Shown in pieces: positions 6,798-21,598 of a stretch of DNA of 64,000 nt. The DNA is taken from positions 16,502-80,501 of IMG/VR virus record IMGVR_UViG_3300015371_000013. One strand, 5' to 3'. Under the pieces are notes generated by a model. The model was not told the DNA's origin and made no database searches. It worked only from the letters and a program-made list of their open reading frames with translations. Every line of letters starts with the position of its first letter. Position 1 is the stretch's first letter. The translations under genes were made by a program, and so were the position numbers. The stretch comes from a virus.

Positions 6798-6804
6798 AGA
6801 GGTA

Positions 6805-6966
6805 CTACTTGCCAGCGTCCTTCATGGCGCGTCTAGCGACTTCCTGCTTCCAGGCCGCCGAGTTGATGAGCTTGCTTGCGGCGCCGAGCAGTGCAGCTGC
6901 GACTCCGAGAGCAAGAATGGGATTCTCTTCGGCCTGTTCCTTCAGGTTGTGGATAAACTTGTCCAT
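6805..6966 (-). CDS. cassette-borne small membrane protein (53 aa)
   Basis: MDKFIHNLKEQ..., AGGAGG RBS, lies between motif 6993-7019 and a terminator. Confidence 0.75.
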   Translation of the reverse strand: MDKFIHNLKEQAEENPILALGVAAALLGAASKLINSAAWKQEVARRAMKDAGK

Positions 6967-7031
6967 GGATTCCTCCTGGATAGGGTAGCTTTTCATTATA
7001 GGAGGGGTTTTTCCCGCGATCTCACCCGGAC

Positions 7032-7132
7032 AAAAAAGAAAGCCTGTGCGAGAATGAACTCTAAGGTTACTCACAGGTGTCTATCGCATTATTTCTCCAA
7101 AGCCTTGGATCGGCGGGCAATAGCACTCTTTC
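7032..7132 (-). ncRNA. putative cassette-borne structured sRNA (~100 nt)
   Basis: No RBS/ORF between motif 7131 and the U-tract at 7032. Stems GAAAG/CUUUC, GUGCUAUUGC/GCGAUAGACAC, UCCAA/UUGGA, CCUGUG/CACAGG. Confidence 0.65.
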
Positions 7133-7164
7133 ATTAAAGGCTATGTTTTTCACGCGAATTACAC

Positions 7165-7200
7165 AAAAAAGAGAACCTGCGTTTTAGACAGATTCTCCTT
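7165..7200 (-). terminator. intrinsic terminator
   Basis: GAGAATCTG...CAGGTTCTC plus T6. Confidence 0.7.
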
Positions 7201-7205
7201 TGAGA

Positions 7206-7487
7206 TTACTTCTCCTGCTTGTCGTTCTTCTTAGCTTGGCGATTGTTCCACTTCTCGGTGAGGAAGTCGGCGGTCTTGTCGACGGCGATATCGGTGAGAC
7301 TGCCGCAGGCGTTACTTACGCCCCAGCCAACGATACCCGCTCCGATCTTGACGATCATGGCGTCCTTCTCGAAATTGGTGTTGTTGGCTGTGGTGTTGGT
7401 AACAACTTCGGCCGTCTTGATAGCGACGATCGACCTAGCGACCCACTTCGCAATGTTGCGAGCGGTGAAATCAGTAGGATCCAGCAT
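7206..7487 (-). CDS. cassette-borne hypothetical protein (93 aa)
   Basis: MLDPTDF..., AGGAG RBS, downstream of motif 7517. Confidence 0.75.
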   Translation of the reverse strand: MLDPTDFTARNIAKWVARSIVAIKTAEVVTNTTANNTNFEKDAMIVKIGAGIVGWGVSNACGSLTDIAVDKTADFLTEKWNNRQAKKNDKQEK

Positions 7488-7624
7488 AGAATTACTCCTA
7501 GTTTGGGGTTTGGTTCTCATTATAGGCGATGAAATATACGCGAGCCACGCGCTAACCCGTCCCACTGCTCGCACTCTACTGGCGCCGCCACTGGAGATAA
7601 GCCGGTCTTTCGTAGAGCTAAAAC

Positions 7625-7852
7625 TTAGAACAACTCAAGCTGGTCATCTTGATCATCTTGATCTTCTCGAATATCCCGTTCGAGTTCTTCAGGAGTCTCA
7701 GGTTTAGGCTTCTGACTATCTCTGATAAACCTGAGATAAACCGCTGTGATTCGATCTCTCGGCCAATTGGCGACCTTTTCTTGCCAGGCCAGGCCGGGAT
7801 ACATCTTGGATACGTAATTTCGACGATCACGATCTTCTTTGTCTTGACTCAT
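7625..7852 (-). CDS. conserved small phage protein
   Basis: Y....W..KV..W....I.AVY motif with an acidic tail. Confidence 0.7.
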   Translation of the reverse strand: MSQDKEDRDRRNYVSKMYPGLAWQEKVANWPRDRITAVYLRFIRDSQKPKPETPEELERDIREDQDDQDDQLELF

Positions 7853-7855
7853 AAT

Positions 7856-7963
7856 CTATCGCCAGGACCATAGAATGGCAAAGAATATAAGGCACAGCCC
7901 CACCAGCATGATGGCCAGTACCTCACCTGGGCCCAGGCAGAGTCCAAGCCATTTGCAGAGCAT
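7856..7963 (-). CDS. small membrane peptide (35 aa)
   Basis: Manual ORF MLCKWLGLCLGPGEVLAIMLVGLCLIFFAILWSWR with AAAGGA RBS. Confidence 0.55.
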   Translation of the reverse strand: MLCKWLGLCLGPGEVLAIMLVGLCLIFFAILWSWR

Positions 7964-7994
7964 GGATTTGTCCTTTGAAATCGAGATTCTGAGC

Positions 7995-8265
7995 TGCCTC
8001 CATTGCCGTGCGGGATGAGCACCATGGCAATTGGCACTCCCTGCTGTTCTTCACAGCCAGGTCGCAGATCATCCCCTGCCCGTGGCGCCTACGTCTGGAG
8101 GGCGTACGGGTGGAGGAATGACCCCACTCAGAGTCTTTCTGAGTGGTCTTTTCCTAGAGGATATGGGGTACAAGGACGCAACTGCTTCTATCGCTGTTGT
8201 CTTTTATAGGCTAGCACTCTATGGGCTGCCGTCCTTGCCTTGCGCTTACCCCATCTCCCTAGGAG
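7995..8265 (-). ncRNA. putative structured non-coding RNA block
   Basis: No credible ORF; consecutive hairpins plus a long branched stem at 8152-8264. Confidence 0.55.
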
Positions 8266-8269
8266 AGCT

Positions 8270-8485
8270 TTAACCCACCACGCTGATCTGGCGGATCACG
8301 AACGCGTTCGAGGCACTTCCATGCGCGGAGAGTTCCAACCTATCTCCCCGAGGCGTGATCCTCAATCGGGCTTGTGGGTTACTTCTGCTCTCCACGAACA
8401 CTTCTCCGCTGGGATTCGTGTATACCACCACGTCCCGGCTTTCGAAGTGAATCGGAAACTGCTCGGTTCCGATGTGAGAGGCCAT
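8270..8485 (-). CDS. hypothetical protein (71 aa)
   Basis: ORF track; AGGAGG RBS. Confidence 0.7.
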   Translation of the reverse strand: MASHIGTEQFPIHFESRDVVVYTNPSGEVFVESRSNPQARLRITPRGDRLELSAHGSASNAFVIRQISVVG

Positions 8486-8563
8486 GCATCCTCCTACTGT
8501 GGTTTAAGCCACCACATGGGCTTGACTACCTTTTGAAGCCATAGTTTTAAATATGCAAGCCAC

Positions 8564-8799
8564 GGGTCCGAACTATCCTACCCTGCCTGCTCTCTACCGG
8601 CGCCTGACTATTGAACGAACGAAGCCAAGAATTCAATAGTCGGTATTTTGTAGAGCGTCTTACCTCTAGTTTGGGTTTTGGTTATGCGTCAAATATGACC
8701 GTGAGACCGTATAGTTTGCTGGCTCCCGGTGTTCGACGACGAATATGAGGTCAATCAAATCCGGTTACTTAGCCTATTATTTGGTCGTTGCACGGACCC
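8564..8799 (-). ncRNA. putative ~235-nt structured RNA
   Basis: Intergenic; ends pair (GGGTCCG/CGGACCC); perfect 10-bp stem 8606-8615/8632-8641. Confidence 0.45.
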
Positions 8800-8824
8800 C
8801 TTAACAGGTACCAGCTTTAAAGAT

Positions 8825-9460
8825 TTAGGCCAGCTTGAAACGACCGGCAGCTAGACCGGTCTGAAGATCGGATGAATCCATCTCTACGACTTCGGCCTGG
8901 GTGAGAGTGACCGGATTATTAGAAGTGGCTGAGGCAATCTTTTTATCTCGATCAGCCTTCGTCTCGGCTATAGATCTCTGAGCAACCGCCGGTCGGGGAC
9001 CCATAGGTGTCTGAGCTCCATCAGCTTGAGCCTTCTCTGCCTGGGCTCGAATATCACCGGCAATCTTCTCAAGGTTGCTGGGAACCACACCGTTCATGAA
9101 TTCGGCGGCAGCTCCGGCGTCCGTACACAGCTCGAAGAGCAGCTGGGAAAAGGCTTCGGTAGAGGCAAATTCTTCCCAGATGACCGATGACTTGCGGAAG
9201 CTGTCTCCGTCTTTTCTGCCATAGGCTCGACGAATAATATCCTTGATCTCGGTCATGATGGCTTTGCCATCTTCAGAATCGACGATACGCTGAAGCTTGG
9301 CCTGCATACCCGTAAGCGTCTCGCCATCTTTGACGTATTTCACGCCGTGTTCTTCCATCTCCATCTCGACCAGATCAGCCTTGGAAATATGAAAGTAGTG
9401 TTCCTCCGTCACCTCCTCTTCGGTGAACGGGTTCTCGTAGGTGATGGTCTTCTTGAGCAA
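8825..9460 (-). CDS. conserved phage protein (MLKKTITY family)
   Basis: 211 aa; YFHISKADLVEME and AYG.K motifs; GAAAGGAG RBS. Confidence 0.8.
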   Translation of the reverse strand: MLKKTITYENPFTEEEVTEEHYFHISKADLVEMEMEEHGVKYVKDGETLTGMQAKLQRIVDSEDGKAIMTEIKDIIRRAYGRKDGDSFRKSSVIWEEFASTEAFSQLLFELCTDAGAAAEFMNGVVPSNLEKIAGDIRAQAEKAQADGAQTPMGPRPAVAQRSIAETKADRDKKIASATSNNPVTLTQAEVVEMDSSDLQTGLAAGRFKLA

Positions 9461-9521
9461 CGCGCTCCTTTCAACAAGGGAGCCTCCGTGCTCTGGATAA
9501 TTGCGTCCTTTCGAAATATAA

Positions 9522-9592
9522 GGCCATAGCCGGTCGCTGGGATTGCGCCAACTTGTTACATAGCGGTAGCGAACCGTACCGGCATTATGGCC
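9522..9592 (-). ncRNA. putative branched RNA element
   Basis: GGCCATA/TATGGCC and GCCGGT/ACCGGC closing stems around two arms. Confidence 0.45.
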
Positions 9593-9598
9593 CAGGGG

Positions 9599-9691
9599 TT
9601 ACTTGTTCAGCAGCTTCGGCTTGCGCTCAAACCACCATGCGAGTCCGAAGGCACCGAGGGTGGTAGCGAGGATGATGAAAAACGGCTTCAT
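9599..9691 (-). CDS. small membrane peptide (30 aa)
   Basis: Manual ORF MKPFFIILATTLGAFGLAWWFERKPKLLNK; ATGA overlap. Confidence 0.55.
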   Translation of the reverse strand: MKPFFIILATTLGAFGLAWWFERKPKLLNK

Positions 9692-9831
9692 GGCATCGAC
9701 GGGGACGGCTCAGGGGTTGATGGCGATGACGAAGGCGGTGACGGCTTCTCAGGCGCGCTCTTGCCCAGAAAATCGTCGATGATGTCACTGAGCATGTAGC
9801 CAACGGCTACTCCGAGCAGGAACTTGGTCAT
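9688..9831 (-). CDS. small protein with Pro/Ser-rich tail (47 aa)
   Basis: Manual ORF MTKFLLGVAVGYML...; ATGA overlaps at both ends. Confidence 0.6.
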   Translation of the reverse strand: MTKFLLGVAVGYMLSDIIDDFLGKSAPEKPSPPSSSPSTPEPSPSMP

Positions 9832-10079
9832 CGATTTCCCCCATTGGGATCGACCGTTTGGGCGGCCTTGGCCGCTGCCGTCGCTGCCTCGGCCCGCAGG
9901 GTCTTGCTGCCAAAGCGGTTGAGCGTGAACAGGAGGCCTACTCCGACCACCAAGCCTCCCAGCGCGCTCTGCTTGAAGACCTTCTTGCCGTGCTCGGTGA
10001 TGATGAGACGCGCGATCTCGTCCTCTCCCAGCGGTGTGGTGAAACCCTCACCAGTCTTAAGGGTCTTGAAACCCAACAA
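9828..10079 (-). CDS. membrane protein (83 aa)
   Basis: TTG start with AAAGGAGAG RBS; one TM segment. Confidence 0.7.
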   Translation of the reverse strand: MLGFKTLKTGEGFTTPLGEDEIARLIITEHGKKVFKQSALGGLVVGVGLLFTLNRFGSKTLRAEAATAAAKAAQTVDPNGGNR

Positions 10080-10117
10080 TGTACTCTCCTTTGTTTTATA
10101 TGACGATGTTCAGACGG

Positions 10118-10375
10118 TCAGGACTTGACGCAACCGGCTCTGAAACGGAGCACGCCGACGACGAACATGCTCGCGCCCAGCCCCATGAAGGTGGTCCCCC
10201 ACGCCAGGTTTTCTTTGGCGAGCATCTCGGGCGTCTTGTTGATGGTGGTTCGGTTGATCACCGGGGGCTTGACGGCCGCCTTCTCGAGCAGCTCGTTGTA
10301 CCTCTCGACTGCGATCTTGACGGTACCGTCGCTTGCCGTCTTGATGGTCTGGACGTTCTCACTGGATTCGGCCAT
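10118..10375 (-). CDS. membrane protein (85 aa)
   Basis: MAESSEN..., AAGGAGAG RBS; C-terminal TM segment. Confidence 0.7.
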   Translation of the reverse strand: MAESSENVQTIKTASDGTVKIAVERYNELLEKAAVKPPVINRTTINKTPEMLAKENLAWGTTFMGLGASMFVVGVLRFRAGCVKS

Positions 10376-10411
10376 TGTACTCTCCTTGTTGTTATGAATA
10401 TAAATCAACGG

Positions 10412-10620
10412 AGCCCCCGATCCAGTACCGGGCCCTTAGGCAGACCGGCTACTGAACCGAGGGCTGTGATCCGTCGAGGCCGGTTCCCATCCGACCATCC
10501 CTCCTGAGGGATACTTGAAATATGTGGTCCGCGCTGAGGGAGAGGCATCAAAGTCCTTATGCCGACCACTCTCGATAGCCTCTTGCCTATTACCGTTGAT
10601 TAGATAATAGGTCTATCGAG
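10412..10620 (-). ncRNA. putative structured non-coding RNA block
   Basis: 16-bp G-U-containing stem at 10412-10465, followed by further branched hairpins up to 10620. Confidence 0.55.
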
Positions 10621-10633
10621 TACTACTTCAGAA

Positions 10634-10729
10634 CTACTTCTGCTTGGCCCACTTCTCCATCATCTGGAGCAAGGCGTCGGCCAGACGTTGCTTTCGATTC
10701 CTCTTACGACGAAGAAATGGGATGCGCAT
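10634..10729 (-). CDS. small basic peptide (31 aa)
   Basis: Manual ORF MRIPFLRRKRNRKQRLADALLQMMEKWAKQK with AAGGAG RBS. Confidence 0.6.
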   Translation of the reverse strand: MRIPFLRRKRNRKQRLADALLQMMEKWAKQK

Positions 10730-11040
10730 CTTGGGGTCTCCTTATTCTGGATCAAGAAAATATGACTGACTTAACGAGAGGGATGGATCGCCGTATTCAT
10801 TAGTGATCACAAACTGCGCTTCGTCGAATTTCTTTAAGATCCGATTTCGTTTCTGACTATTCCGCATTCGACGTCTATACAACGACGATCGTTTAGGATA
10901 GTCCTGTGTTACTTGATGATTCTCTGCTATTTCCATCGGCCGAGAAACTTCAGACCGACCCCTCCGATGATGCCACTGGCGATGAGCATAAATATGCTGA
11001 TACCAGGGCATCAACCGGAGCTCGGGTGCTTCAAGTCGAT

Positions 11041-11849
11041 CTAGTAGTGCTTTGGGATGTAGTCCGGCTTGGGGAGTACCTGGAAGTCGATTGACAGACA
11101 AGGTCTTCCGTCTGGAGATGTAACCGTATCGTACTTGAGCTCCAGAAGCTCATCGGTGTTCCACCCCATATCGTCGGTCCATGAGGTGGCGGGCATTCCG
11201 AGACGCTCGTAGAAGGCGGTAGCATTGACCCAACCTCGATCGTTGAGGATCTCGGCGTTGGTGTCGTTGACTGCCTTCTTGATCTTCTCCATGGTGCTAT
11301 GGAAATATCGTCCGGTCGGCTCATCAAAACAGAGAACCTCTCCCTCGACCACGACGATTTTCTGATAGCCGTCGGTTCGATTCACCCGATCCTGAGAAAT
11401 CTCCGCCTCGATGGATTGCTTCTTCGGACCGGTGAGCTTCTCGGAGACCTTCTCCTTGTACTCCGAGAGATTGCGTTCAGCCAGACCATAGGCCGCCGCC
11501 AAAGCTGCCGCTTTCTGAGCCGACATGCGATGGGAGAATATGATGGCACTGATCGTGAGACCTCCGGTGACGACAGGAGGCACGAACTGCGGCCAGACCA
11601 GCTTGATCTTCTGAGACGGGCTGAGTCCCATGGTGGCATTGCTTTCACCATCGATGACGTCGGTCACGCCTTCGGGATGAATATGCTCGAGCTCCTTCTC
11701 GCGGATGATCTCCGCGGCTTTAAAGCCAGCTCGGCCGGTGAGGACTGCGGTGGCAACTGTGCCAACAACACCTCCCGCGGTGAGCAGAACGGTCGCGTTC
11801 TCAGAAACGAACTGGGCGCCCTTCTGCTTTACTGCATCAAGAAACTGCA
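11041..11849 (-). CDS. DUF6353-like protein (paralogue of 4778-5740)
   Basis: VLLTAGGVVGTVATAVL, GRYF, N..FYE.LG, D.MGWN motifs. Likely GTG start at VQFLDA after an AGGAGA RBS. Confidence 0.8.
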
Positions 11850-11882
11850 CTCTCCTAGGCCTTTCTCGAACTTGGGTGGACG

Positions 11883-11920
11883 AAAAGAAAAAGAGATTCC
11901 GAATCAACGGATCTCTCTTC
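11883..11920 (-). terminator. hairpin/U-tract directly after motif 11919 (empty cassette)
   Basis: GAGATCCG-TTGATT-CGGAATCTC-TTTTTCTTTT begins right after TATAATGA. Confidence 0.7.
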
Positions 11921-11949
11921 ATTATAGGGGATGTTTTTCCCGCGAATTT

Positions 11950-12135
11950 TCAGCGGTCGTTCTTCCGATGGATTTCGAGCCTCTCGCCAGGCTTGAATCG
12001 GCATCGCCCTAATTTTCCCTCCAAGGTGGTAAGGCCTATCTCACTGGGGGTAACCCATCTCACAGACACCACGTCGGTGACTGCGAAAACGACCTCCTCG
12101 GTTTCCTCATCGACAAATATGAGTTCGAAGGTCAT
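11950..12135 (-). CDS. hypothetical protein (61 aa)
   Basis: ORF track restarted at MTFELIF; a 29-aa ATGA-coupled ORF (12132-12221) lies upstream. Confidence 0.65.
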   Translation of the reverse strand: MTFELIFVDEETEEVVFAVTDVVSVRWVTPSEIGLTTLEGKLGRCRFKPGERLEIHRKNDR

Positions 12136-12217
12136 CGAGACTTTCCGCGAAGAATGGCGGCGAGAGCCAGTAGTTTCTGAGCTTGGTCCTCGCATGACTG
12201 AGCAATCTGATCAGCGG

Positions 12218-12382
12218 TCATCGTCGCATCTCCCGGCAGAATATCCAGATGAGCCAGAGCCCCCCTGTGACAACTGTCAACATGACGTCGAACACAAAGG
12301 AAAAGAAGCCATAGCGCTTTCGCGGCTCTCCGAAGTAGACATGGCGAGAATATGTCTGATTGTCACGAAAGAACTCACGCAT
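12218..12382 (-). CDS. small membrane protein
   Basis: MREFFRDN...FDVMLTVVTGGLWLIWIFCREMR. Confidence 0.7.
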   Translation of the reverse strand: MREFFRDNQTYSRHVYFGEPRKRYGFFSFVFDVMLTVVTGGLWLIWIFCREMRR

Positions 12383-12677
12383 TGTCGTCACGCTCATTGT
12401 ACTTGTTCTGGATCTCAATCAGCTTGGCCGACATGCTGTCGAGAATAACTTGATCGAACTCGCTGAGCTCGATACGATTATCATCCACGATTTGCAAAAG
12501 CCGATTGCGCTGTCTGATCGTCTCTTCGAGAGCGGTAGCCAGATCCTCTCGATGTTCAATTACGATATCAATGCTTTTGAGCAGTCGCTTGACCTGAACT
12601 ATCGATACAATGTTGGTGGCGAAGAGACCAGCAATGATGGCGTAAAAGTAAATATCACTATTGAGAAATTTACGCAT
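12375..12677 (-). CDS. membrane-anchored coiled-coil protein
   Basis: 100 aa; N-terminal TM segment. Confidence 0.7.
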   Translation of the reverse strand: MRKFLNSDIYFYAIIAGLFATNIVSIVQVKRLLKSIDIVIEHREDLATALEETIRQRNRLLQIVDDNRIELSEFDQVILDSMSAKLIEIQNKYNERDDNA

Positions 12678-12828
12678 CCCGCTTTATCCCCTTGGCTGTG
12701 GGGTGAAACTTTAAAGCGCGCCTCTCGGCGAGTTCTCGGGTGACGGCCCGGACTTTGACGGTTCGAGTCATCCCGTTCTCATACTCCACGGTGACGTGAT
12801 ACAAGCGCTTCGACTTCTTGGTCTGCAC
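12670..12828 (-). CDS. small basic protein (52 aa)
   Basis: Manual ORF VQTKKSKRLYHVTVEYENG...; overlaps the next start. Confidence 0.6.
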   Translation of the reverse strand: MQTKKSKRLYHVTVEYENGMTRTVKVRAVTRELAERRALKFHPTAKGIKRDA

Positions 12829-12860
12829 GGCAGGCTCTTTCTGTTGAGGGTAAATATGAC

Positions 12861-13067
12861 TTACGGAAGAAGATCTCTCAGAGCAGCGTAAGCTTCTCGT
12901 TGATTTGGAGTGAGCGAGAACTCAGCATACTCATTTGCGAGTTCTTTGATTTCCTGACGTTCTTCGGGGGTGAACTGTTCACGCAAAGTGCTCGCCATGC
13001 GACGAGCATCGTTGTGAATCGTCATGATCACTGTGTAATGGATGAGAGCTTTGTCTCGTGACTTCAT
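12861..13067 (-). CDS. hypothetical protein (68 aa)
   Basis: MKSRDKAL..., GAAAGGA RBS. Confidence 0.7.
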   Translation of the reverse strand: MKSRDKALIHYTVIMTIHNDARRMASTLREQFTPEERQEIKELANEYAEFSLTPNQREAYAALRDLLP

Positions 13068-13083
13068 CAGATTCCTTTCTGAG

Positions 13084-13163
13084 AAAAAAGAGAGAGAAGG
13101 GAATCTATCCAATTCAATGGCGTATTCCTTTGCAAGCCAACAGTCAGTTGGCTCTTCTCTCTC
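13084..13163 (-). ncRNA. putative cassette-borne sRNA (three-way junction)
   Basis: After motif 13162: closing stem GAGAGAGAAG/CUUCUCUCUC plus U-tract; arms AGCCAAC/GUUGGCU and GGAAU/AUUCC. Confidence 0.7.
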
Positions 13164-13190
13164 ACTATACGGCGTGTTTTCCCCGCGTGA

Positions 13191-13571
13191 CTATGCGGTC
13201 ACTACATCCGGCTTCCTGGCCACCCAGGTCGAGCTGATGAGATAGAGCCCAGCCAGGGTCGACAAGAACAGACCCCAACCCGGCTGAACCAGATCGTTGA
13301 CTCCCGCCTCACTGAGATGGAACCAGACATAGGCCACTTGAGACAGGACTACGAGACCGACGAAGATCGAGACGATCCTCATGTAGAGACCGGAGACGGC
13401 GGACGCGATGACGAGTCCGATGCCTGTGAATATGGCGACCGCCACCTCGGTGAAGTTCATCGGCCCGGCGCTGATGACTCCGAGAAAGCTGATCCAGGGG
13501 CCAAGGGCACCAAAGATAAGCGCGATAGCGCCAATGGTGAGCGCGGTGGGACGGTTGAGCTTGGTAGTCAT
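13191..13571 (-). CDS. four-TM membrane protein (126 aa)
   Basis: MTTKLNRP..., ALGPW and PGWGLFL motifs, AAAGGAG RBS. Confidence 0.75.
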   Translation of the reverse strand: MTTKLNRPTALTIGAIALIFGALGPWISFLGVISAGPMNFTEVAVAIFTGIGLVIASAVSGLYMRIVSIFVGLVVLSQVAYVWFHLSEAGVNDLVQPGWGLFLSTLAGLYLISSTWVARKPDVVTA

Positions 13572-13596
13572 GATGACTCCTTTATGGATTGTGGAT

Positions 13597-13684
13597 AAAA
13601 AAGAGAGACCCATCTCCTCCTGCTGTCGTAGCATGGCTTCGTTGGCAGGTCGCGTAGCATAGCTTCGCTGTGGAGATAGGTCTC
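13597..13684 (-). ncRNA. putative structured sRNA with duplicated hairpin
   Basis: 13-bp closing stem GAGACCUAUCUCC/GGAGAUGGGUCUC plus U-tract; both arms carry CGAAGC(U/C)AUGCUACG. Confidence 0.7.
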
Positions 13685-13691
13685 AAAATAT

Positions 13692-13813
13692 AAAGAAACC
13701 CCAGCACATTGCTCTACCTGGGCGCAATGCACTAGATAGAGTTAGGTGGGCACTCGAGGTACTTTTTACACCGTAGCCTGAGCGCAATGCATCAGACTAA
13801 CTGCTGGGGTTTC
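13692..13813 (-). ncRNA. putative cassette-borne sRNA (~120 nt)
   Basis: After motif 13812: 12-bp closing stem GAAACCCCAGCA/UGCUGGGGUUUC; UGCAUUGCGC(U/C)CAGG occurs twice. Confidence 0.7.
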
Positions 13814-13830
13814 ATTATACCACGGGTTTT

Positions 13831-14238
13831 CTACGCGAATACGGAATTCGGCAAAGCCGCAAACCGTTCTTGTAACCCGTGAATATCCTGAGCAATCTCA
13901 CGAGCGTTTTTGCCAACAACGGCTGCAGCTCGATTGATGCTCGGATAAGGTTCGCCAGTCAGCTTGTCCAAAACAGGAATTGGCTCACGACAAGCTCTTT
14001 TTACGAGGGCTATCTGGGTGATCTTGGGCTTCCAGATAATCAACGCCGTATTCTTTGCTTTCTGCTGTATCTCAAGCGGCAAACCGTTGAGACGAAGTAG
14101 AATGGTGGTCGCAGTGACAGAAGAGCCCACCGCGAGACATCCTGCGCCGACGAGATACACCTTCTTGTTCTCCTGCAGATGCTGCTTAACCCGCTCGATC
14201 TTGGTACGATCGTCCTGCTTTTCTCCTTCCTGACTCAT
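13831..14238 (-). CDS. TM segment plus NUMOD1-like HTH protein (paralogue of 17824-18204)
   Basis: KQHLQENKKVYLVGAGCL shared with the paralogue; C-terminal TGEPYPSINRAA; the stop codon lies inside motif 13812. Confidence 0.75.
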   Translation of the reverse strand: MSQEGEKQDDRTKIERVKQHLQENKKVYLVGAGCLAVGSSVTATTILLRLNGLPLEIQQKAKNTALIIWKPKITQIALVKRACREPIPVLDKLTGEPYPSINRAAAVVGKNAREIAQDIHGLQERFAALPNSVFA

Positions 14239-14399
14239 AGTCCCTTCCTTGGGTTGAACACTGATTTACAAATATGAGCGATGGTGACAGCGGTGATGAT
14301 CTTTATCACTGCGTCCGTCGTCTTGTCAATCACTCGTTCCACGTCTTCGGTGGGGATGTTGATGTTGATGTTTACATCATCTTCGATCTTGTGCTTCAC
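14235..14399 (-). CDS. hypothetical protein (54 aa)
   Basis: Manual ORF VKHKIEDDVNININIP..., AAGGAG RBS, ATGA overlap. Confidence 0.65.
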   Translation of the reverse strand: MKHKIEDDVNININIPTEDVERVIDKTTDAVIKIITAVTIAHICKSVFNPRKGL

Positions 14400-14421
14400 G
14401 ACTCTCCTTGTCGCCCGAGGG

Positions 14422-14485
14422 AAAAAATGAAAGAGATCACAATTTCGAATATGCGATTACAGGAGCCTTTCTCCTTCTCTTTCAT
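14422..14485 (-). ncRNA. putative cassette-borne sRNA (three-way junction, ~60 nt)
   Basis: AAUGAAAGAG/CUCUUUCAUU closing stem plus U-tract; arms AGGAG/CUCCU and AUCGCA/UGUGAU. Confidence 0.6.
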
Positions 14486-14509
14486 TATAGGGGCGGTTTT
14501 TCACGCGAA

Positions 14510-14872
14510 TTATTCACCCTCAATATCTGCTTTGATATCCGGCAATTCCTTCGGGCGTTCTCGTCTTTCTGAGGTGACGATCACGGTTATGGTGGGCAAT
14601 TCCCACCGGCGTTCGGCCAGAGGATCGATCTGCATCTGGCGAAGATCCTCAGGCGTTAAAGAGAACTCGTATACTTCAGGCGTGATGACCTTGTCTCTGT
14701 CGGCCAGCACCGAGTTGAACTTCATCGCCTTGTAGGTAACCGCCGATCCAACCATGGCTCCAAATATCCCGGTGGCGGCGTAAGGATGATCGGTAGCGAA
14801 TCTGATCGAACGAGACAGCAGAAGCAACCAGTTTATCTGGTTCATCTGCTCTTTCATCTGATCTTGCTCCAT
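14510..14872 (-). CDS. hypothetical membrane protein
   Basis: 120 aa; AGGAGG RBS. Confidence 0.75.
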   Translation of the reverse strand: MEQDQMKEQMNQINWLLLLSRSIRFATDHPYAATGIFGAMVGSAVTYKAMKFNSVLADRDKVITPEVYEFSLTPEDLRQMQIDPLAERRWELPTITVIVTSERRERPKELPDIKADIEGE

Positions 14873-15493
14873 CTAGCCAACCTCCTTGCTGGCCTGTATC
14901 GAAGCGCTTACACCAATGATTCTGCAGAGAAGATTGATCGAATCGTGAGAATGCAGCGGCTCGTAATGCGGATTGAGCTTGTCTTGCTTTACCAGATCAA
15001 CGATGCCCTGAATATCCGTACGCCATTGAGAAGACGTATAGTAATCGGCCAGCCCGCGATCCGTACGCTTAAGCGTGTCAAGGAACTTATCCTCGGCAAT
15101 CTCCTTAATACGATTTGCCCATTCCGAGGTAATTTCCATAGTCGCCCCTGTGCCCTTCTGAACGAAGGGCGAATTGTCGACGTACTGCATAGCGTCGTTG
15201 TAGATTCGAGCAACCACGATCTCCTTGAGGGCATCCTGACCATAGATCAGGACAGCATAACCCAAGGGCAGATTCCAGATCTTCTCCGGACGACCATGAT
15301 GAACGCCCTGAGTGAGGCAGTTGTAGCCCCACTCGATTTCCTTCTGAGACTTCTGAGGACCCTTTACCTTGATGAACTTCACCATATTCTCAGCCTCGTA
15401 TTCCGAGACATCAAGTTCTTTGGCGATTTCACTGATAGAACGGTCTTCGCCTATCATCTGACGAGTTCGAGCTAGTTTCTCTTGGGTGTTCAT
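14873..15493 (-). CDS. N-terminal HTH protein (206 aa)
   Basis: RSISEIAKELDVSE helix-turn-helix pattern. Confidence 0.7.
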   Translation of the reverse strand: MNTQEKLARTRQMIGEDRSISEIAKELDVSEYEAENMVKFIKVKGPQKSQKEIEWGYNCLTQGVHHGRPEKIWNLPLGYAVLIYGQDALKEIVVARIYNDAMQYVDNSPFVQKGTGATMEITSEWANRIKEIAEDKFLDTLKRTDRGLADYYTSSQWRTDIQGIVDLVKQDKLNPHYEPLHSHDSINLLCRIIGVSASIQASKEVG

Positions 15494-15598
15494 TACTCTC
15501 CTCTATACGCTTGATCTTTTGCTCCCAGAATGTCCAGTCCCGCCACCGCTGTTCTAGCAAATATAGCCGTTCTGGAGTCAACCACGGAGCAATCAACT

Positions 15599-15841
15599 TC
15601 ATTGATCTCCAAGTCCGGTATCGCGCAGAATTTTTCGCGAGATTTCCTTCGGATCAGTCAACCCTTGCCATTCTGTTCCTTCGCGGATGGCAAACAGGAC
15701 GTCAATCACGGCCAGATTGTATCCGACAAACTTAGCCTGATCCTCCGGAGAAATCTCTAGGTCGCCAGGCACAGGCTCAGCAATCTGCATGAAAGTATCT
15801 TGAAGCTCTTTGAGTCGAGCTTTTTCGGTTTCGGTGATCAT
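15599..15841 (-). CDS. hypothetical protein
   Basis: 80 aa; AGGAGAG RBS. Confidence 0.7.
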   Translation of the reverse strand: MITETEKARLKELQDTFMQIAEPVPGDLEISPEDQAKFVGYNLAVIDVLFAIREGTEWQGLTDPKEISRKILRDTGLGDQ

Positions 15842-15861
15842 TGCTCTCCTAAATATAGTGA

Positions 15862-16068
15862 TTAATCGTCGATAACCAGAGGGTCAAACCATCGACCATC
15901 TAGATCATGACGAAACCCTGCCTCAAGCATACGTTGTTCGATAATCTCCGGATGCTCGGCCTCCATGTGCCGCACCTCTTCGTGCGTATTGTTGGCAACT
16001 GCTCCACAATATGGGCAATGCCTCACACAATAAGGTCCGGAGCTCATGGGGTAATCCTCGTCATACAC
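15862..16068 (-). CDS. C2H2-type Zn-finger-like small protein
   Basis: CPYC...HMEAEH. Confidence 0.65.
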   Translation of the reverse strand: MYDEDYPMSSGPYCVRHCPYCGAVANNTHEEVRHMEAEHPEIIEQRMLEAGFRHDLDGRWFDPLVIDD

Positions 16069-16520
16069 AGACTGATTCCACTCTGGGTACTCATGTAGCG
16101 CGCATCAGGCCAGATTCCCTTGCGATGAAGATCCAGCCGGTCGGCGTCCCAACAGGTGGCGATAGTGGGATTGATCGCTCTTTGACCAGAGCTATGCTCC
16201 ACACAGGCCTCGAACAGTAGTTCTATTTGCTCATCGAAAATATAGCGATGGAGATGCTCTTGCGTCTTGTAGAAGCGTTCCCACAATCGATACCCTCGAT
16301 TTCCATGATCAGGATCTTTACCATCGTTTACCCGCATGGAGTCGTGAAATAAAGCGTACAACGCCACAACTTCCATGTCGGCGCCGGTTTCATACCCGTT
16401 TAGCATCTGAGCGTTCTGCCAGACCCTAAACCAATGGTCAAGACCATGGAGTCGACTCTGGAGAACGTTCAGGGTTATAGACTCGCCCAAGACAAAGGGA
16501 ACGCAATGACTGGCGAGCAT
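16044..16520 (-). CDS. HD-domain phosphohydrolase
   Basis: HGLDHWFRV, LFHDSMR, DHG and CWDADRLDL motifs. Confidence 0.85.
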   Translation of the reverse strand: MLASHCVPFVLGESITLNVLQSRLHGLDHWFRVWQNAQMLNGYETGADMEVVALYALFHDSMRVNDGKDPDHGNRGYRLWERFYKTQEHLHRYIFDEQIELLFEACVEHSSGQRAINPTIATCWDADRLDLHRKGIWPDARYMSTQSGISLCMTRITP

Positions 16521-16546
16521 GGTTACTCCTGCGGGTTGGCCGTTGA

Positions 16547-16819
16547 TTATAAACTTTCCTTTGCTTTCTTGCGCTTTCGTCTCTTGTAGGCACGATCCAC
16601 GGTTCGTCTAGCGCAGATATCGCTACAGTACTGTGCATCGTTTCGAGGCTTTCTTGTTTTCGAGAGAGGCTCTTGGAATAGAAATTCCTTTTGACAGGTT
16701 TCGTCAGCACATCGCTTGATCTCGACATCAAGTAAAGTCAAGATCGCATCTGTGAGAGTGCTGGTTTGAGTATAGGAAAGGGCAGTCTGAACTACTACGT
16801 CGGGTACATCTTGGTTCAT
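16547..16819 (-). CDS. C4 Zn-finger (CGNR-like) protein
   Basis: CADETC...YCSDICARR with a basic tail; start MNQDVP. Confidence 0.65.
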   Translation of the reverse strand: MNQDVPDVVVQTALSYTQTSTLTDAILTLLDVEIKRCADETCQKEFLFQEPLSKTRKPRNDAQYCSDICARRTVDRAYKRRKRKKAKESL

Positions 16820-17028
16820 CACGACTGCAAATATGCGATGTCGCGAGCCTGCTTGAGATCGCGAGCCTGCTCGATGGTCAGACCAAGAAGCTCGGTCTTG
16901 GTGAAGCTCAGCTCGTCGCTGAACCACGGGAAGACAAACTTCTCAGAGCCGTCTTCCATAGTGGCGATGGCCTCCTTGTCACCGTAGCGGTGATTGGAGT
17001 CTTGAAAGATTACTGACTTGATGCGCAT
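16819..17028 (-). CDS. hypothetical protein (69 aa)
   Basis: F.WFSDELSF...EL.GLT..QA..L; AGGAGAG RBS. Confidence 0.75.
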   Translation of the reverse strand: MRIKSVIFQDSNHRYGDKEAIATMEDGSEKFVFPWFSDELSFTKTELLGLTIEQARDLKQARDIAYLQS

Positions 17029-17035
17029 AACTCTC

Positions 17036-17371
17036 CTAGTTTGGGTTGCCGAACAGTTCTTCCAGACGTGTAGCCAGATACTCCTGTCGAACTTCGTGAT
17101 GAACGTCTTTCAACTCTTCAAGAATATCGTGAGCAATCTGCTGATACTCCTGGCTGCTCGTAGTCTCGACGGGGAACCAGCGGTTAAGCTTCGGGTAAGG
17201 CCCTTCGCTTCTAAGGGCGTTTTCCCGCTTGAGTCGTCCGAGCATGGTGGTGATCTGGAGTGGCGGGCCCTCGAAAGAAATCCCAGCAATGATCTCAGAT
17301 CGAGCGGCTCCAGGATTGGCACGGACATATTCTATGATTTGATGTGTAAGAGTGTTGTTGGTTTGTGACAC
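17036..17371 (-). CDS. winged-helix-like DNA-binding protein
   Basis: IIEYVRANPGAARSEI...LGRLKRENAL. Confidence 0.65.
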   Translation of the reverse strand: MSQTNNTLTHQIIEYVRANPGAARSEIIAGISFEGPPLQITTMLGRLKRENALRSEGPYPKLNRWFPVETTSSQEYQQIAHDILEELKDVHHEVRQEYLATRLEELFGNPN

Positions 17372-17436
17372 AAAGTCTCTCAGGTTGTGGGGTCTCAGAA
17401 AAAATGAGAACCCACGAATGGATTCTCATTGAAATA

Positions 17437-17643
17437 CTACGACTTGTTGAGCTTGGCGGTCTCGAGGTTGAGCTTGGCGGTCTCGAGCTGCATCTGGTTC
17501 ACCTTGAGGCCTGCGTACACGGACGCGCCGGTCAGAGCCACGGGAATGACGATCCACGCGGTCATGATGGCGGCATCCTTGATGCGCTGCTTCTTGGTGG
17601 GCTTGGGCGGCTCGACGACCTTGGGGGTCTCGGGCTCGGACAT
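17437..17643 (-). CDS. cassette-borne membrane protein (68 aa)
   Basis: MSEPETPK..., AAAAGGAG RBS, TM segment, C-terminal LETAKLN x2. Confidence 0.75.
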   Translation of the reverse strand: MSEPETPKVVEPPKPTKKQRIKDAAIMTAWIVIPVALTGASVYAGLKVNQMQLETAKLNLETAKLNKS

Positions 17644-17692
17644 GCAACACTCCTTTTGTAGTGGTTTCATTATGAACTGTGAAATATCCGCG

Positions 17693-17797
17693 AAAGAAAA
17701 GAGAGAGCCACCTACCAACGACTTATAGAAGTTGGGATCCGACCCCCTTAAAGGGGATCTCGTCAAGGCGACTTAGAGAAGCCTAGATGACTCTCTC
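17693..17797 (-). ncRNA. putative cassette-borne sRNA (four-way junction)
   Basis: 14-bp closing stem GAGAGAGUCAUCUA/UAGGUGGCUCUCUC (2 G-U) plus U-tract; three arms, two with CUUCU(C/A)UAAGUCG; bracketed by motifs 17796 and 17667. Confidence 0.75.
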
Positions 17798-17823
17798 ACT
17801 ATAAAGCGTGAATATGGCGCGAA

Positions 17824-18204
17824 TTATATGGTGATACGTTCGAAGTGCAACCCATTCGCATGCGGGTATTTACCGTTCAGATGCTGTGAAAGGTTAGTTT
17901 CCGAGATGCCCTTCGCCAAAGCGGCCTCTGCTTGGCTGCTCCACTTCTCCAGAGTTTCGAGACATCGTACTGGATTAGCCGGGTAATTGCGCTGGTTCAA
18001 ATACTTGATGACCACGTCGACATTCTTTGACTTATTGACTATCAGACCAATGTTGTCAGTACCATTGAACGTCTGAATTACATTGGGGCTTGACACCCCG
18101 CGCAGCAAATATCCCGCGGTAAGACATCCTGCACCAACCAAGTAAACCTTCTTGTTGTCCTTCAAATGCTGCTTGATCTTCTGATAACGCGTAGACTCTT
18201 CCAT
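17824..18204 (-). CDS. TM segment plus NUMOD1-like HTH protein
   Basis: PVRCLETLEKWSSQAEAALAKGIS..NLSQHLNG...GLHFER resembles NUMOD1/IENR1. Confidence 0.75.
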   Translation of the reverse strand: MEESTRYQKIKQHLKDNKKVYLVGAGCLTAGYLLRGVSSPNVIQTFNGTDNIGLIVNKSKNVDVVIKYLNQRNYPANPVRCLETLEKWSSQAEAALAKGISETNLSQHLNGKYPHANGLHFERITI

Positions 18205-18259
18205 GATTTCCTTTAGTTCGTTTGAATAAAAAAGGAAAGCCCCTTTTCGGGGCTCGCCT

Positions 18260-18421
18260 TTAGGCGTAGATCTGAACGACGCCGGGGACGAGGGTGGTCT
18301 CAGCCAGCTTGGCCTGGGACTTGGTGATCATTCGCTCGTACTTGTACACCGCACGGATAGTGCGGAGAACGTTGACGTTTGCGTTGATCTCGGTCTTAAC
18401 GGCCTTGATGGGATGGAACAT
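18260..18421 (-). CDS. cassette-borne small protein (53 aa)
   Basis: Manual ORF MFHPIKAVKTEIN..., AAAGGAG RBS. Confidence 0.7.
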   Translation of the reverse strand: MFHPIKAVKTEINANVNVLRTIRAVYKYERMITKSQAKLAETTLVPGVVQIYA

Positions 18422-18508
18422 AATGGTCTCCTTTGGTGGTTTAGGTCTTCATTATGTACCATGTTTTTCACGCGAAAAAGGAAAGCCCGTGCGGACTCTC
18501 CTTAGAAA

Positions 18509-18706
18509 TTACTTCACCTGGTTGGAAGCTGCCTTGAGGGTTTCGAGGACGATCCTCTTGTCGAGCATCTTGTACGAGATGAATGAGTTGGCGACTGCGG
18601 TAGCACAGTAGATGGAAAAGCATCCGAGTACTAGCTTTTGGCTGCCAGTCATCATCATGATACGAGACCTCCTAAGAGGCTCACGGGTTTCGTTTGACTC
18701 GGGCAT
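18509..18706 (-). CDS. cassette-borne membrane protein (65 aa)
   Basis: AGGAGAG RBS; lies between motif and terminator. Confidence 0.7.
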   Translation of the reverse strand: MPESNETREPLRRSRIMMMTGSQKLVLGCFSIYCATAVANSFISYKMLDKRIVLETLKAASNQVK

Positions 18707-18794
18707 AACTCTCCTAGAGTTGATAGTGGTTTCATTATAGCCTGTGAAAAGTATGCGAAAAACTGAAAGCCCGGGTTAGGGGCTCTCAGTTTGA

Positions 18795-18932
18795 TTAGCT
18801 GCTCTTCTTCGAAAGCAGATGATCGGCGATGACGATTGAACTCGTTGCCAGCGTAAGCCACGCACTGGCCCGAGTGGCCCGATGGGCGTGGGGGGCGGTG
18901 ACGTGGATGACGGCGGCGAGCTTGTTCTTCAT
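18795..18932 (-). CDS. cassette-borne small protein (45 aa)
   Basis: Manual ORF MKNKLAAVIH..., GAAGGAG RBS. Confidence 0.7.
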   Translation of the reverse strand: MKNKLAAVIHVTAPHAHRATRASAWLTLATSSIVIADHLLSKKSS

Positions 18933-19030
18933 GGCAAATCTCCTTCTGATAAGAGGGTTTACTTTTCATTAGAAGCTATGAAATATCCGCGAAAAACCTA
19001 GAGACCGGGTTAGGGTCTCAGGGTTTTGAA

Positions 19031-19222
19031 CTAGAACTTACGGGCGATGATGACTTGGGAGTTCGGCTCGAGTGCGGCCAGAGCATCGACATGTTCCTGG
19101 ATGCGGCGCTGACGCTCCTGCTCTTCCCCAGCTGCAGCGAATGCAGTGAGGGTGAACAGAGCGGCGCCACCCAGGGCCTTGCCGGTGTTGCGGGCGTACT
19201 TCTTGGCGGTTTCCTTGGTCAT
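19031..19222 (-). CDS. cassette-borne membrane protein (63 aa)
   Basis: AAAAGGAG RBS; hydrophobic segment. Confidence 0.75.
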   Translation of the reverse strand: MTKETAKKYARNTGKALGGAALFTLTAFAAAGEEQERQRRIQEHVDALAALEPNSQVIIARKF

Positions 19223-19322
19223 GGTTTTTCTCCTTTTGAGTTTGATTTAGTTCTCATTATAAGACATGAAAATTACGCGAAAAAAGAAAGAAAGAGAATC
19301 CGATGCGGACTCCCTTCTTGAT

Positions 19323-19454
19323 TTAGACCTGCGAGGTGTACTGGTGACCAACGTCTTGTAGACTGGCGTACACGTCCATTGCAAATATGCTTCCCATCGC
19401 GAGGATGGTGAGCAGGATTACAACGAACATGAGGCGTCCGAGGGACAGGGTCAT
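19323..19454 (-). CDS. cassette-borne membrane peptide (43 aa)
   Basis: Manual ORF MTLSLGRLMFVVILLTILAMGSIFAM..., AAGGAG RBS. Confidence 0.7.
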   Translation of the reverse strand: MTLSLGRLMFVVILLTILAMGSIFAMDVYASLQDVGHQYTSQV

Positions 19455-19542
19455 GAGGTATCTCCTTGTTTAGGTTTGGTTTCATTATACTCCATGAAAT
19501 ATGCGCGAAAAAGGAAAGCCCGTGCGGACTCTCCTGTTGAGG

Positions 19543-19761
19543 TTACTTCTTGGGGTTAATGTTCTCGACAGCGCGCCTGGCGGAAGTGAGAGCGATCTGC
19601 TCCTCGAGGTACATGATGCGGGCATTGACCTTGTTGGTGTGGCTCTCGCTAGCGGCAGGGCTAGCGGAAAGCTGCCAACGAGTCATTTCGGCATTCAGGT
19701 ACTCGAGGATGGCATCAAGCTTCTCAACTTCTGTAATAGGCTTACGGGTCTTGAAAAACAT
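19543..19761 (-). CDS. cassette-borne helical protein (72 aa)
   Basis: AAGGAG RBS; lies between motif and terminator. Confidence 0.75.
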   Translation of the reverse strand: MFFKTRKPITEVEKLDAILEYLNAEMTRWQLSASPAASESHTNKVNARIMYLEEQIALTSARRAVENINPKK

Positions 19762-19842
19762 GTTGACTCCTTGATAGTGGTTTCACTATAATCCATGAAA
19801 TATGCGCGAAAAAGGAAAGCCTGGGTAGGCTCTCCTGTGAAA

Positions 19843-20019
19843 CTAATTGTTCTGCTGGGAAACGTCGGCTTCGAACTTGCGCTTATTTCGGCGGTCCAGA
19901 TAGTTGACGAATCCGATACCCACGACGATCAGAGTAGCGTTGAGGGCAACGTACTGAACGGGGTGACTACGAATCCAGTCGTACTGGACCTCCTGAGACT
20001 TGCGGTAAAGCTTGAACAT
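19843..20019 (-). CDS. cassette-borne membrane protein (58 aa)
   Basis: MFKLYRKS..., one TM segment. Confidence 0.7.
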   Translation of the reverse strand: MFKLYRKSQEVQYDWIRSHPVQYVALNATLIVVGIGFVNYLDRRNKRKFEADVSQQNN

Positions 20020-20113
20020 TGGAGTTCTCCAGTGTAGAGGTTTGGTTTCATTATAACCCATGAAATATGCGCGTAAAAAAAGAGAAGCCGGGTTAGGACT
20101 CCTCTCTAACGAT

Positions 20114-20347
20114 CTAATCGATGGGAATCAGGTCGTAGTGAAATCGCGGAAAGCCGATACGTCTCATCTGGAAACGATAACGACCGGGCGGCACGGTGCG
20201 GAAATCTCCGTCCTGACACATGTTCATGAAAGTTCCGTGAAGAATCTTTTCTTTTTGTGTCGGGTCAGAGGTGACATAGGCAACGTGGGCCACATCGTCG
20301 TCGTTTATAGTGACGAGAATATAGGGTTTTGACGATTTTCGAAACAT
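20114..20347 (-). CDS. cassette-borne hypothetical protein (77 aa)
   Basis: GAAAGGA RBS. Confidence 0.75.
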   Translation of the reverse strand: MFRKSSKPYILVTINDDDVAHVAYVTSDPTQKEKILHGTFMNMCQDGDFRTVPPGRYRFQMRRIGFPRFHYDLIPID

Positions 20348-20434
20348 GATGTTCCTTTCGGGTAGGTGTCATTATAAGCTGTGAAATGTTCGCGAAAAAA
20401 GAAAGTCCCGGATTGAGACTCTCTTTTTGACTAC

Positions 20435-20683
20435 TTACACGACAGGACTCGCTTCGTTGAGGACGAAGATGTTGAGGCGATCAGAAGTCCACTTGAGAGC
20501 ATCTCCTGGATTGTCCAGCAGCTTCTGGAGATTCTCAGGGCTGACCGAGAGGAACAGATCGCTGGTGTTGTTGGACATCAGGCGATGTGCTCCTACGGCT
20601 CCTGCAATAACTCCAGCACCGTAGACGATGACAGTGTGATGCTTCCGATAGAACTTCTTAGCACGTTGGTACTTGTCGTTCAC
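20435..20683 (-). CDS. cassette-borne membrane protein (82 aa)
   Basis: GTG start VNDKYQ after AAAGGAG. Confidence 0.7.
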   Translation of the reverse strand: MNDKYQRAKKFYRKHHTVIVYGAGVIAGAVGAHRLMSNNTSDLFLSVSPENLQKLLDNPGDALKWTSDRLNIFVLNEASPVV

Positions 20684-20777
20684 GAAATACTCCTTTGAGT
20701 AGTAGGTTGTCACTATACCCCATGAAATATGTGCGAAGACAAAAAGAGAAGCCGCGTTAGGGCTCCTCTCTTTGAGA

Positions 20778-20999: not shown

Positions 21000-21194
21000 G
21001 AAAATCCTCCTTTGGTTAGGTGTGGTTTCACTATAAACCATGAAATATACGCGCCAGTATTTACAGTAAATGCGAGTCAGTATCTGGACTTTTCACCAAA
21101 ATTACCCCCCGGGAATTTTTTGATAGTGAAAAAAAGAGAGGCTGTGTTTTTCACACGAACCTCTCTCTTCGATAACTTATTTCAGGATTTGGCG

Positions 21195-21545: not shown

Positions 21546-21598
21546 TTACTCTCCTTTGATAGGGTTGTCATTATAGGCTGTGTATCAGCCGCGAAACC

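Follow-up and report, generated by a model that had tools for sequence, protein, structure and literature searches.

Several known RNA systems invite comparison with the stretch of DNA analyzed here, a window of 64,000 nucleotides (nt) comprising bases 16502-80501 of the 80.5-kilobase (kb) IMG/VR virus record IMGVR_UViG_3300015371_000013, in which six copies of a promoter motif lead into structured units without an open reading frame (ORF). The transfer RNA (tRNA) region of phage T4 carries two stable RNAs, C and D (species 1 and 2), of unknown function, with paired 5' and 3' ends and cut from a long precursor. The protein-sequestering RNAs CsrB and RsmZ are built on repeated hairpin motifs, with multiple GGA in the loops that bind CsrA/RsmA, and adenovirus VA RNA and the Y RNAs are small RNAs with a terminal stem and a U-tail. 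Phage lambda PR'-tR' gives a 6S transcript with Q antitermination, and in T7 promoters are followed by RNase III sites. We propose that the ORF-free units of the window phage and of its cultured relatives are most likely unannotated small-RNA genes.

With T4 RNAs C and D, and with phage tRNAs, these units share the likeness of small stable RNAs alongside or in place of tRNAs, with paired ends. Here, however, the design gives each RNA its own promoter and U-run terminator, and the interiors are not tRNA-like but carry repeated loop modules. The likeness to CsrB/RsmZ, VA RNA, and the Y RNAs lies in a repeated short loop motif, paired ends, and a 3' end in a U-run; unlike the GGA of CsrB/RsmZ, the window loops carry GCAUUGCGC, AGCYAUGCU, or UUCUMUAAGUC, Rfam gives no match to CsrB/RsmZ or Y RNA in the window, and the likeness is, in our reading, one of design, not of membership. 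Lambda PR'-tR' and T7 resemble the window in that a structured RNA comes immediately behind a promoter (in lambda with a terminator after it) and ahead of a long operon, which fits the four window cassettes that precede genes. Many cassettes here, however, are followed by a new promoter and not by an operon, and the T7 sites lack U-runs. An earlier note on this DNA, made from the letters alone, had compared the units with pseudo-ToxI and with Racr RNAs (RNA anti-CRISPRs, mimics of the host system's CRISPR repeat), which are likewise phage-borne repeated RNA motifs proposed to neutralize a host protein. A likeness to ToxI is not borne out: the type III antitoxin is a tandem array of 34-40-nt direct repeats beside an endoribonuclease toxin gene, and here there is no such array and no toxin- or defense-type neighbor, and the repeats are loop modules of 9-15 nt.

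The window genome is that of a siphovirus, with a tape measure protein and a capsid-protease fusion, and DNA like it has been found in rhizosphere and soil metagenomes. By homology, a conserved protein of 269 amino acids (aa) places the phage in the actinophage group infecting Arthrobacter, Gordonia, Streptomyces, and Rhodococcus, a supercluster that includes Gordonia DJ, Arthrobacter AM/AU, Streptomyces BI, and Rhodococcus ReqiPoco6. Its Arthrobacter members have been described (PMC5513430), and the genome note of Gordonia phage Vardy gives the promoter motif as a 50-base-pair (bp) element with a sigma-70 -10 box (PMC9671010). As here, supercluster phages have the motif, a polymerase homologue, and, behind their tail genes, small membrane-protein genes in arrays. 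What differs here is the ORF-free cassette: the published accounts describe the 50-bp motif with its -10 box and a putative polymerase, and the literature searched, in which motif, polymerase, and small membrane-protein arrays are all described, holds no description of ORF-free RNA cassettes in these phages. The RNAs themselves are in no catalogue.

The motif, TCGCR-N14-TATARTGA, has 20 matches in the window at no more than one mismatch, against 0.19 expected. All lie on the minus strand, which also holds nearly all of the window's longest ORFs; G+C along the window is about 0.48-0.59. According to a script, 14 of the 20 promoters are followed by an A/C-rich leader, a Shine-Dalgarno (SD) sequence, and an ORF 19-33 nt past the motif, with a T-run only beyond the ORF. 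At the other six (7131, 11919, 13162, 13812, 14482, and 17796) the T-run comes at +24 to +112, ahead of any SD-led ORF, which bears out the earlier note's count of six cassettes without a ribosome-binding site (RBS) or ORF.

All of the units and promoters that follow are on the minus strand. Unit 1 (7032-7130), behind a promoter at 7131-7157 with one mismatch and a spacer of the GAAAAAC subclass, consists of two serial hairpins with a U-run after the second; the promoter of a 53-aa gene (6805-6966) comes directly next, at 6993-7019 (motif and script). The second cassette, with its promoter at 11919-11945, holds a bare 10-pair hairpin and U-run (11883-11918) directly upstream of the leader and RBS of a 269-aa membrane-protein gene (11041-11850). 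Unit 3 (13084-13161; promoter at 13162-13188, one mismatch) has a closing stem, two arms, and a U-run, followed by the RBS of the gene at 12861-13067. The fourth promoter (13812-13838) leads into unit 4A (13692-13811), with a 10-pair closing stem, three arms, and the tail UUUAUAUUUU; the 9-mer GCAUUGCGC stands in the loops of its arms 1 and 3, on unrelated stems, and nowhere else in the 64 kb. Behind it comes a seventh unit without a promoter of its own, 4B (13597-13684), in which a 13-pair closing stem encloses two hairpins that each carry CGAAGCYAUGCUACG; its U-run is followed by the RBS of a 126-aa membrane-protein gene. Unit 5 (14422-14481; promoter at 14482-14508) combines two small hairpins with a closing stem that is weak, and its U-run precedes the RBS of a 54-aa gene. 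Unit 6 (17693-17795; promoter at 17796-17822 with the spacer ATATTCA) has a 12-pair closing stem with two G-U pairs, three arms, of which both arm 1 and arm 3 display UUCUMUAAGUC, and a U-run that gives way to the promoter (17667-17693; motif and script) of a 73-aa gene (17426-17647). The interiors of the units bear no relation to one another, and two cassettes (7131 and 17796) run straight into the next motif; both observations had been made in the earlier note and stand.

Folding energies were expressed as z-scores against dinucleotide shuffles, a check that the earlier note had named. Four of the seven units fold far better than their shuffles: unit 3 (folded over 13080-13161, z -4.9), unit 4A (13688-13811, z -3.7), unit 4B (13595-13688, z -6.65), and unit 6 (17690-17795, z -3.3). 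The bare hairpin is borderline (11880-11918, z -1.8), and the check fails for units 1 (7030-7130, z -0.27) and 5 (14418-14481, z -0.45). A weak z does not exclude a real RNA, because two bona fide tRNAs of relatives score only -0.7 and -1.9. In the minimum free energy fold, the first bases after TGA pair with the bases just before the U-run in all units but that at 7030. The note's claims of such pairing in every unit, and of two or three enclosed arms in five cassettes beside a bare hairpin at 11883, therefore need correction at 7030, where there are serial hairpins and no closing stem. The sense strand folds better than the antisense in all seven units, which hold 12 G-U pairs altogether, in keeping with the claim that these pairs favor the minus strand. 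Each of the seven ends in a stem followed by a U-run (5-7 U within 8-10 nt), and termination is predicted. A simple terminator scanner lists only the terminators of gene cassettes, since it accepts loops of 3-8 nt and so passes over stems with several arms.

The units match no Rfam family: Rfam 15 gives no match at gathering thresholds over the whole window, and at E-values up to 10 over 6800-18200 the five weak matches all fall outside the units. No unit contains tandem repeats, 10-mer searches for antisense targets in the phage genome return only chance-level matches, and PADLOC families find no match among eight neighboring proteins. Near and distant DNA searches with the region and with single units gave no match in 50,697 phage records. 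A profile of the 126-aa neighbor protein found nothing among viral contigs; 13 homologues of its gene were found, and a single metagenome scan led to one 1.4-kb contig. Scans of viral contigs for twin motifs (GCATTGCGC, a gap, and GCATTGCGC) returned more than 119 loci each, with about 50 expected by chance on our estimate, and none had the promoter motif upstream.

Comparison with related strains adds evidence of two kinds. Against metagenome contig L022, unit 13084-13161 shows a single change in 82 nt, at an unpaired base, whereas the flanking gene is about 9% different (binomial p ~0.003). In contigs of three other metagenome runs, 7019 is joined to 7165 through ten other letters. The related strains behind these contigs therefore lack cassette 7131 (7020-7164) with its promoter, RNA, and terminator and nothing more, so that strains differ cleanly by its presence or absence. 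Contigs of runs X7, X8, and X10 leave 13658-14038 uncovered, which is uninformative either way.

Among the relatives examined, three tRNAs were found, two in uncultured phages and one in ReqiPoco6, and each of them occupies the slot between promoter and U-run. The tRNA of L015 (RF00005, 54.8 bits) begins with the first base past the motif and passes from the 3' strand of its acceptor into the U-run; that of L018 (RF00005, 47.6 bits), with an enlarged anticodon region, starts three bases past the motif. These are the only tRNAs of the two records. In ReqiPoco6, an annotated 'tRNA-OTHER' (RF00005, 37.4 bits) stands in the order promoter, tRNA-like RNA, U-run, next promoter. We regard the tRNAs as the strongest argument that the stretch from motif to U-run is meant to be made as RNA. 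Their placement also suggests a transcription start very close to the end of the motif, because the slot tRNAs could otherwise arise only from upstream read-through. As a separate observation, the L018 tRNA (L018:10259-10344, minus strand) has a 22-nt insertion in place of the normal anticodon loop and the L015 tRNA (L015:4265-4338, minus strand) has an A where U33 is expected; the two may not be ordinary decoders.

The same architecture, a closing stem right after TGA, two to four arms, and a U-run, recurs in every relative examined. Thirteen promoter-proximal units of relatives were folded, two of them tRNAs, and seven gave z-scores of -3.3 to -5.2. In the relative L021, whose 269-aa protein is 69% identical, RNA units recur at matching positions. 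One precedes the gene of that protein and two a 127-aa gene located where the window has its 126-aa gene; of the other two, one stands ahead of a small gene and one ahead of a promoter. Their z-scores run from -2.4 to -5.2, and their interiors are unlike those of the window, with the design kept, often with the same motif on two arms. The counterpart of the promoter-less unit 13597-13684 has a promoter in front in L021, and the closing stems are alike (GAGAUGGGUCUC). On this comparison, the cassette arrangement is a trait of the whole group that shares the promoter.

Cultured Gordonia, Arthrobacter, and Rhodococcus phages also carry ORF-free cassettes, in unannotated gaps. By manual count, 15 of 18 are followed by another promoter, and these are therefore stand-alone units; with window and relatives taken together, the count is 21 of 36. 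In CapnMurica, the conserved membrane-protein gene has a homologue directly preceded by an unannotated gap of 392 nt. Three tandem promoters lie in this gap (L030:13476-13831; record 31475-31830), each with an ORF-free RNA behind it. Conley, Pherobrine, Perkunas, Untouchable, OhMyWard, and Artorias have one or two units each in one variable gap, with interiors that differ and a design common to all. Repeated motifs are again seen: ACUUGUCAUUGCGACUCG occurs twice in Conley unit 1 and Pherobrine unit 2, CCCCUUUAUGAGGAG three times in Perkunas unit 1, and AGCAUUGCGCA-type loops twice in Conley unit 2, Artorias, Perkunas unit 2, and OhMyWard.

Two RNA families could be delimited in these phages. 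The first, which we define here as the Gordonia DJ twin-loop RNA (the family of Conley 12921-13008), has a closing stem starting GACCC(C)AG, two AGCAUUGCGCA-loop hairpins, and a U-rich tail; RNAalifold on four sequences recovers the two hairpins, and 5 of the 20 pairs have changes in both partners. The second is an RNA of about 110 nt with the core GGCGAGAC...CCUACCCGCCUGG...UAAUCAC, present in 20 Gordonia phage records and always unannotated (L032:4546-4662 in Conley; L257-L260). It shows compensatory changes, has no Rfam match, and is not present in the window. Every Gordonia copy fetched is framed promoter, RNA, U-run, promoter. A look-alike in ReqiPoco6 (L031:6356-6478), spotted by eye and not found by blastn, has its next promoter about 100 nt past its U-run. 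The earlier note had named covariation among homologues as a check; compensatory changes are seen in these two families of cultured relatives. A link to the window comes from unit 13692-13811, which starts AACCCCAG, carries GCAUUGCGC in two arm loops beside an extra arm, and has the tail UUUAUAUUU; Conley unit 2 starts GACCCCAG, holds the same 9-mer GCAUUGCGC twice, and ends UUUAUAUUU. By our estimate, so close an agreement would arise by chance with a probability of <0.001 among the repeated motifs that were compared; we read the link to the twin-loop family as a shared motif, short of demonstrated membership.

What reads the motif is suggested by a 959-aa protein encoded outside the window, at genome 561-3440 (L023:564-3440, minus strand). 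It has a full-length match to phrog_4291 (E = 0), carries SGADFDGD, the metal loop of two-barrel RNA polymerases, and gives a weak match to RNA-dependent RNA polymerase and another to sigma-70 region 4 (C-terminal, helix-turn-helix (HTH)-like); it looks like a YonO-like single-chain RNA polymerase. The same protein family has been put forward as the putative YonO-like polymerase that marks this actinophage supercluster (10.1101/842583); for YonO itself no promoter is known (PMC5467207). A homologue is present in about 250 cultured phages, annotated as HTH DNA-binding protein, hypothetical protein, or RNA-dependent RNA polymerase. The motif is common to the IMG/VR relatives, two of which carry the polymerase gene, and to the cultured phages Rima (Streptomyces), CapnMurica (Arthrobacter), ReqiPoco6 (Rhodococcus), and Conley (Gordonia); motif and polymerase gene occur together in these four and in the genomes G000, G001, and G004. 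The polymerase may, then, be the reader of the motif.

We lean, without great confidence, toward reading the window units as discrete small RNAs whose closing stem doubles as a terminator, with four of the six cassettes serving also as leaders or attenuators. The phage would thus have built small non-coding RNA genes into its standard promoter-terminator cassette. Transcription would start at TATARTGA or a few bases past it, a position inferred from the sequence, and the 5' bases of the RNA would pair with the last bases before the U-run. The closing stem would both seal an RNA of two or three arms and serve for intrinsic termination, and the RNAs set free would measure about 35-125 nt. Twin apical sequences on different stems, as several units show, would point to a dimeric or repeated partner, most likely a protein. 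Where no promoter comes next, as in four of the six window cassettes, read-through past the stem would supply the downstream genes, the stem acting as attenuator and as terminator of the upstream gene.

It is important to weigh this reading against one in which the units act only in cis, as compound intrinsic terminators or attenuators whose tasks would be to stop transcription from upstream, control how much reads through into the next genes, and protect mRNA ends, the short RNA being a by-product. A variant has the start inside the 5' strand of the stem, so that upstream transcripts would terminate and those of the cassette itself would pass. Several points favor a role in cis or otherwise weigh against discrete RNAs. 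Four of the six cassettes directly precede an RBS and a gene that lacks a promoter of its own, and for five of the six an upstream stop codon comes directly before, with no terminator between; the stems must therefore also end upstream transcripts and pass some polymerase, and a purely cis role would explain the positions of the units. The 11883 hairpin and its L021 counterpart are completely different in sequence with a nearly identical leader behind them, which fits a structural job and not a sequence-specific one. The closing stems and U-runs resemble the terminators of protein cassettes. A -10-like TATAAT would set a sigma-type start about 4-5 nt into the stem, and were the motif an ordinary -10 box that starts RNA some 7 nt further on, the 5' strand of the stem would be left out of the cassette's own transcripts. 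For two of the seven units, folding is on a par with shuffles, and neither blastn nor the covariance model R1, built on four Gordonia units (effective n 1.49), finds unit 13692-13811. The polymerase gene has no match in G006, rated 94% complete, though the motif is present there; and the start, end, and abundance of the transcripts are all inferred.

Other observations are hard to fit to a role in cis alone. A full promoter follows 21 of the 36 cassettes of window and relatives, so no downstream gene depends on them, and a terminator already lies upstream of cassette 7131. Relatives have tRNAs in the same place. Twin or triple identical loops on different stems, and the near-perfect interior of unit 13084-13161, are needless for termination. 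We therefore hold a cis-only role to be possible but doubtful as an account of the whole set. The set is best read as mixed: RNA genes with a second role in termination or attenuation stand beside at least one hairpin that simply attenuates, and the bare hairpin at 11883 is probably only an attenuator or terminator. The earlier note's view that the two cassettes which run into a promoter are unlikely to be leaders fits this picture, in which the four that precede a gene would act as leaders or attenuators too.

If discrete RNAs are made, the decoy idea of the earlier note is one possible function. A fuller form of it, which we offer tentatively and think rather unlikely, would make the cassettes a swappable arsenal of multivalent decoy RNAs, each with two or three loop modules capturing a dimeric host protein (for example, an RNA-binding defense or RNA-turnover factor), exchanged between strains like small anti-host protein genes. 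The note had inferred that RNA effectors are swapped in the same slots as small proteins; an RNA slot is supported by the tRNAs, the ORF-free cassettes, the two RNA families with compensatory changes, and the gain or loss of a whole cassette between strains, and the swap of RNA for protein is a conjecture.

The units might instead be tRNA relics or accessory modules like T4 stable RNAs C and D, processed by way of an acceptor-like closing stem and with little or no function of their own. True tRNAs in the slot of relatives speak for this, as do the cloverleaf shape of unit 17693-17795 and the first two CapnMurica RNAs, with their tRNA T-arm-like hairpins GGUUCGAAUCC and GGUUGAAAUCC. Yet RF00005 and ARAGORN find no tRNA in the window, and no window unit scores as one even at a relaxed threshold; a T-loop motif is absent from the genome save for a single chance match on the opposite strand. 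Nor are twin loops a feature of tRNAs, and relics would not keep 81 of 82 bases (unit 13084-13161) while the flanking gene drifts. We consider this origin improbable.

Less probable still is a role at the level of DNA, in which the units would be bound by a DNA-binding protein of phage or host, or would mark where cassettes recombine, and the hairpins would be incidental: the direct repeats of 10-15 bp might serve as operators in pairs, and strains do differ at cassette junctions, but the stems around the repeated motifs differ in sequence with pairing kept and compensatory changes, G-U pairs favor the sense strand in all units, and each unit is framed by promoter and U-run. Micro-peptides from unled or leaderless ORFs, for instance with the RTG inside TATARTGA as a leaderless start, are hardly credible, although such ORFs reach 29 and 32 aa in cassettes 14482 and 13162 and the relative L020 has an SD-led 23-aa hydrophobic ORF in a short cassette, because the RTG-ORFs of the six cassettes measure 8, 29, 7, 32, 293, and 17 aa, with 7-8 aa in two of the best-folded units, the L021 counterparts have TATAATAG without RTG, and no SD-led start precedes a U-run. 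Leaderless translation was rejected for want of a consistent ORF. Unled micro-ORFs of 7-32 aa do exist in the units, none with an SD and none conserved; as a caveat, AAGGAG occurs within the 14482 unit, with no start codon behind it.

The promoter spacers merit a word of their own. The form GAAAAAC is found in five of the six RNA cassettes and 2 of the 14 protein cassettes (hypergeometric p ~0.007, confounded with genome position), and the promoters of L021 show the same tendency. Across 6993-21594, the window promoters fall into two spacer subclasses, GAAAAAC and ATATTTCA, with the same split in L021. The former goes with RNA cassettes and longer operons, the latter with the head-to-tail single small genes at 17667-21054. 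The heptamer CATATTT, which is the spacer of one promoter subclass (TCGCGCATATTTCA), has 37 copies on the coding (minus) strand and one on the other, with 5.5 expected in all. Its sites (for example, 8549-8555, 8691-8697, and 10518-10524, minus strand) lie inside and between genes, often just 3' of a hairpin, and CATATT(C/T) is also common in Streptomyces phage Rima; a strand-specific signal is possible, for instance for pausing, stopping, or processing. Two ORF-poor stretches without a promoter motif, 8130-8300 and 10395-10640 (minus strand), fold with z -3.2 and -4.85 against shuffles and may be further structured RNA within a long operon.

The supercluster holds more than 200 sequenced cultured actinophages, isolated on Gordonia, Arthrobacter, Streptomyces, and Rhodococcus in the SEA-PHAGES program, and in those inspected the units are unannotated. 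If our reading is true, these phages would contribute a new and sizeable set of phage non-coding RNAs absent from catalogues, and the cassettes would show, in their natural setting, at which points the putative single-chain polymerase begins and ends transcription. The repetition of the loops would, moreover, point to specific protein partners that could be fished for, and for the cultured relatives both phage and host are available.

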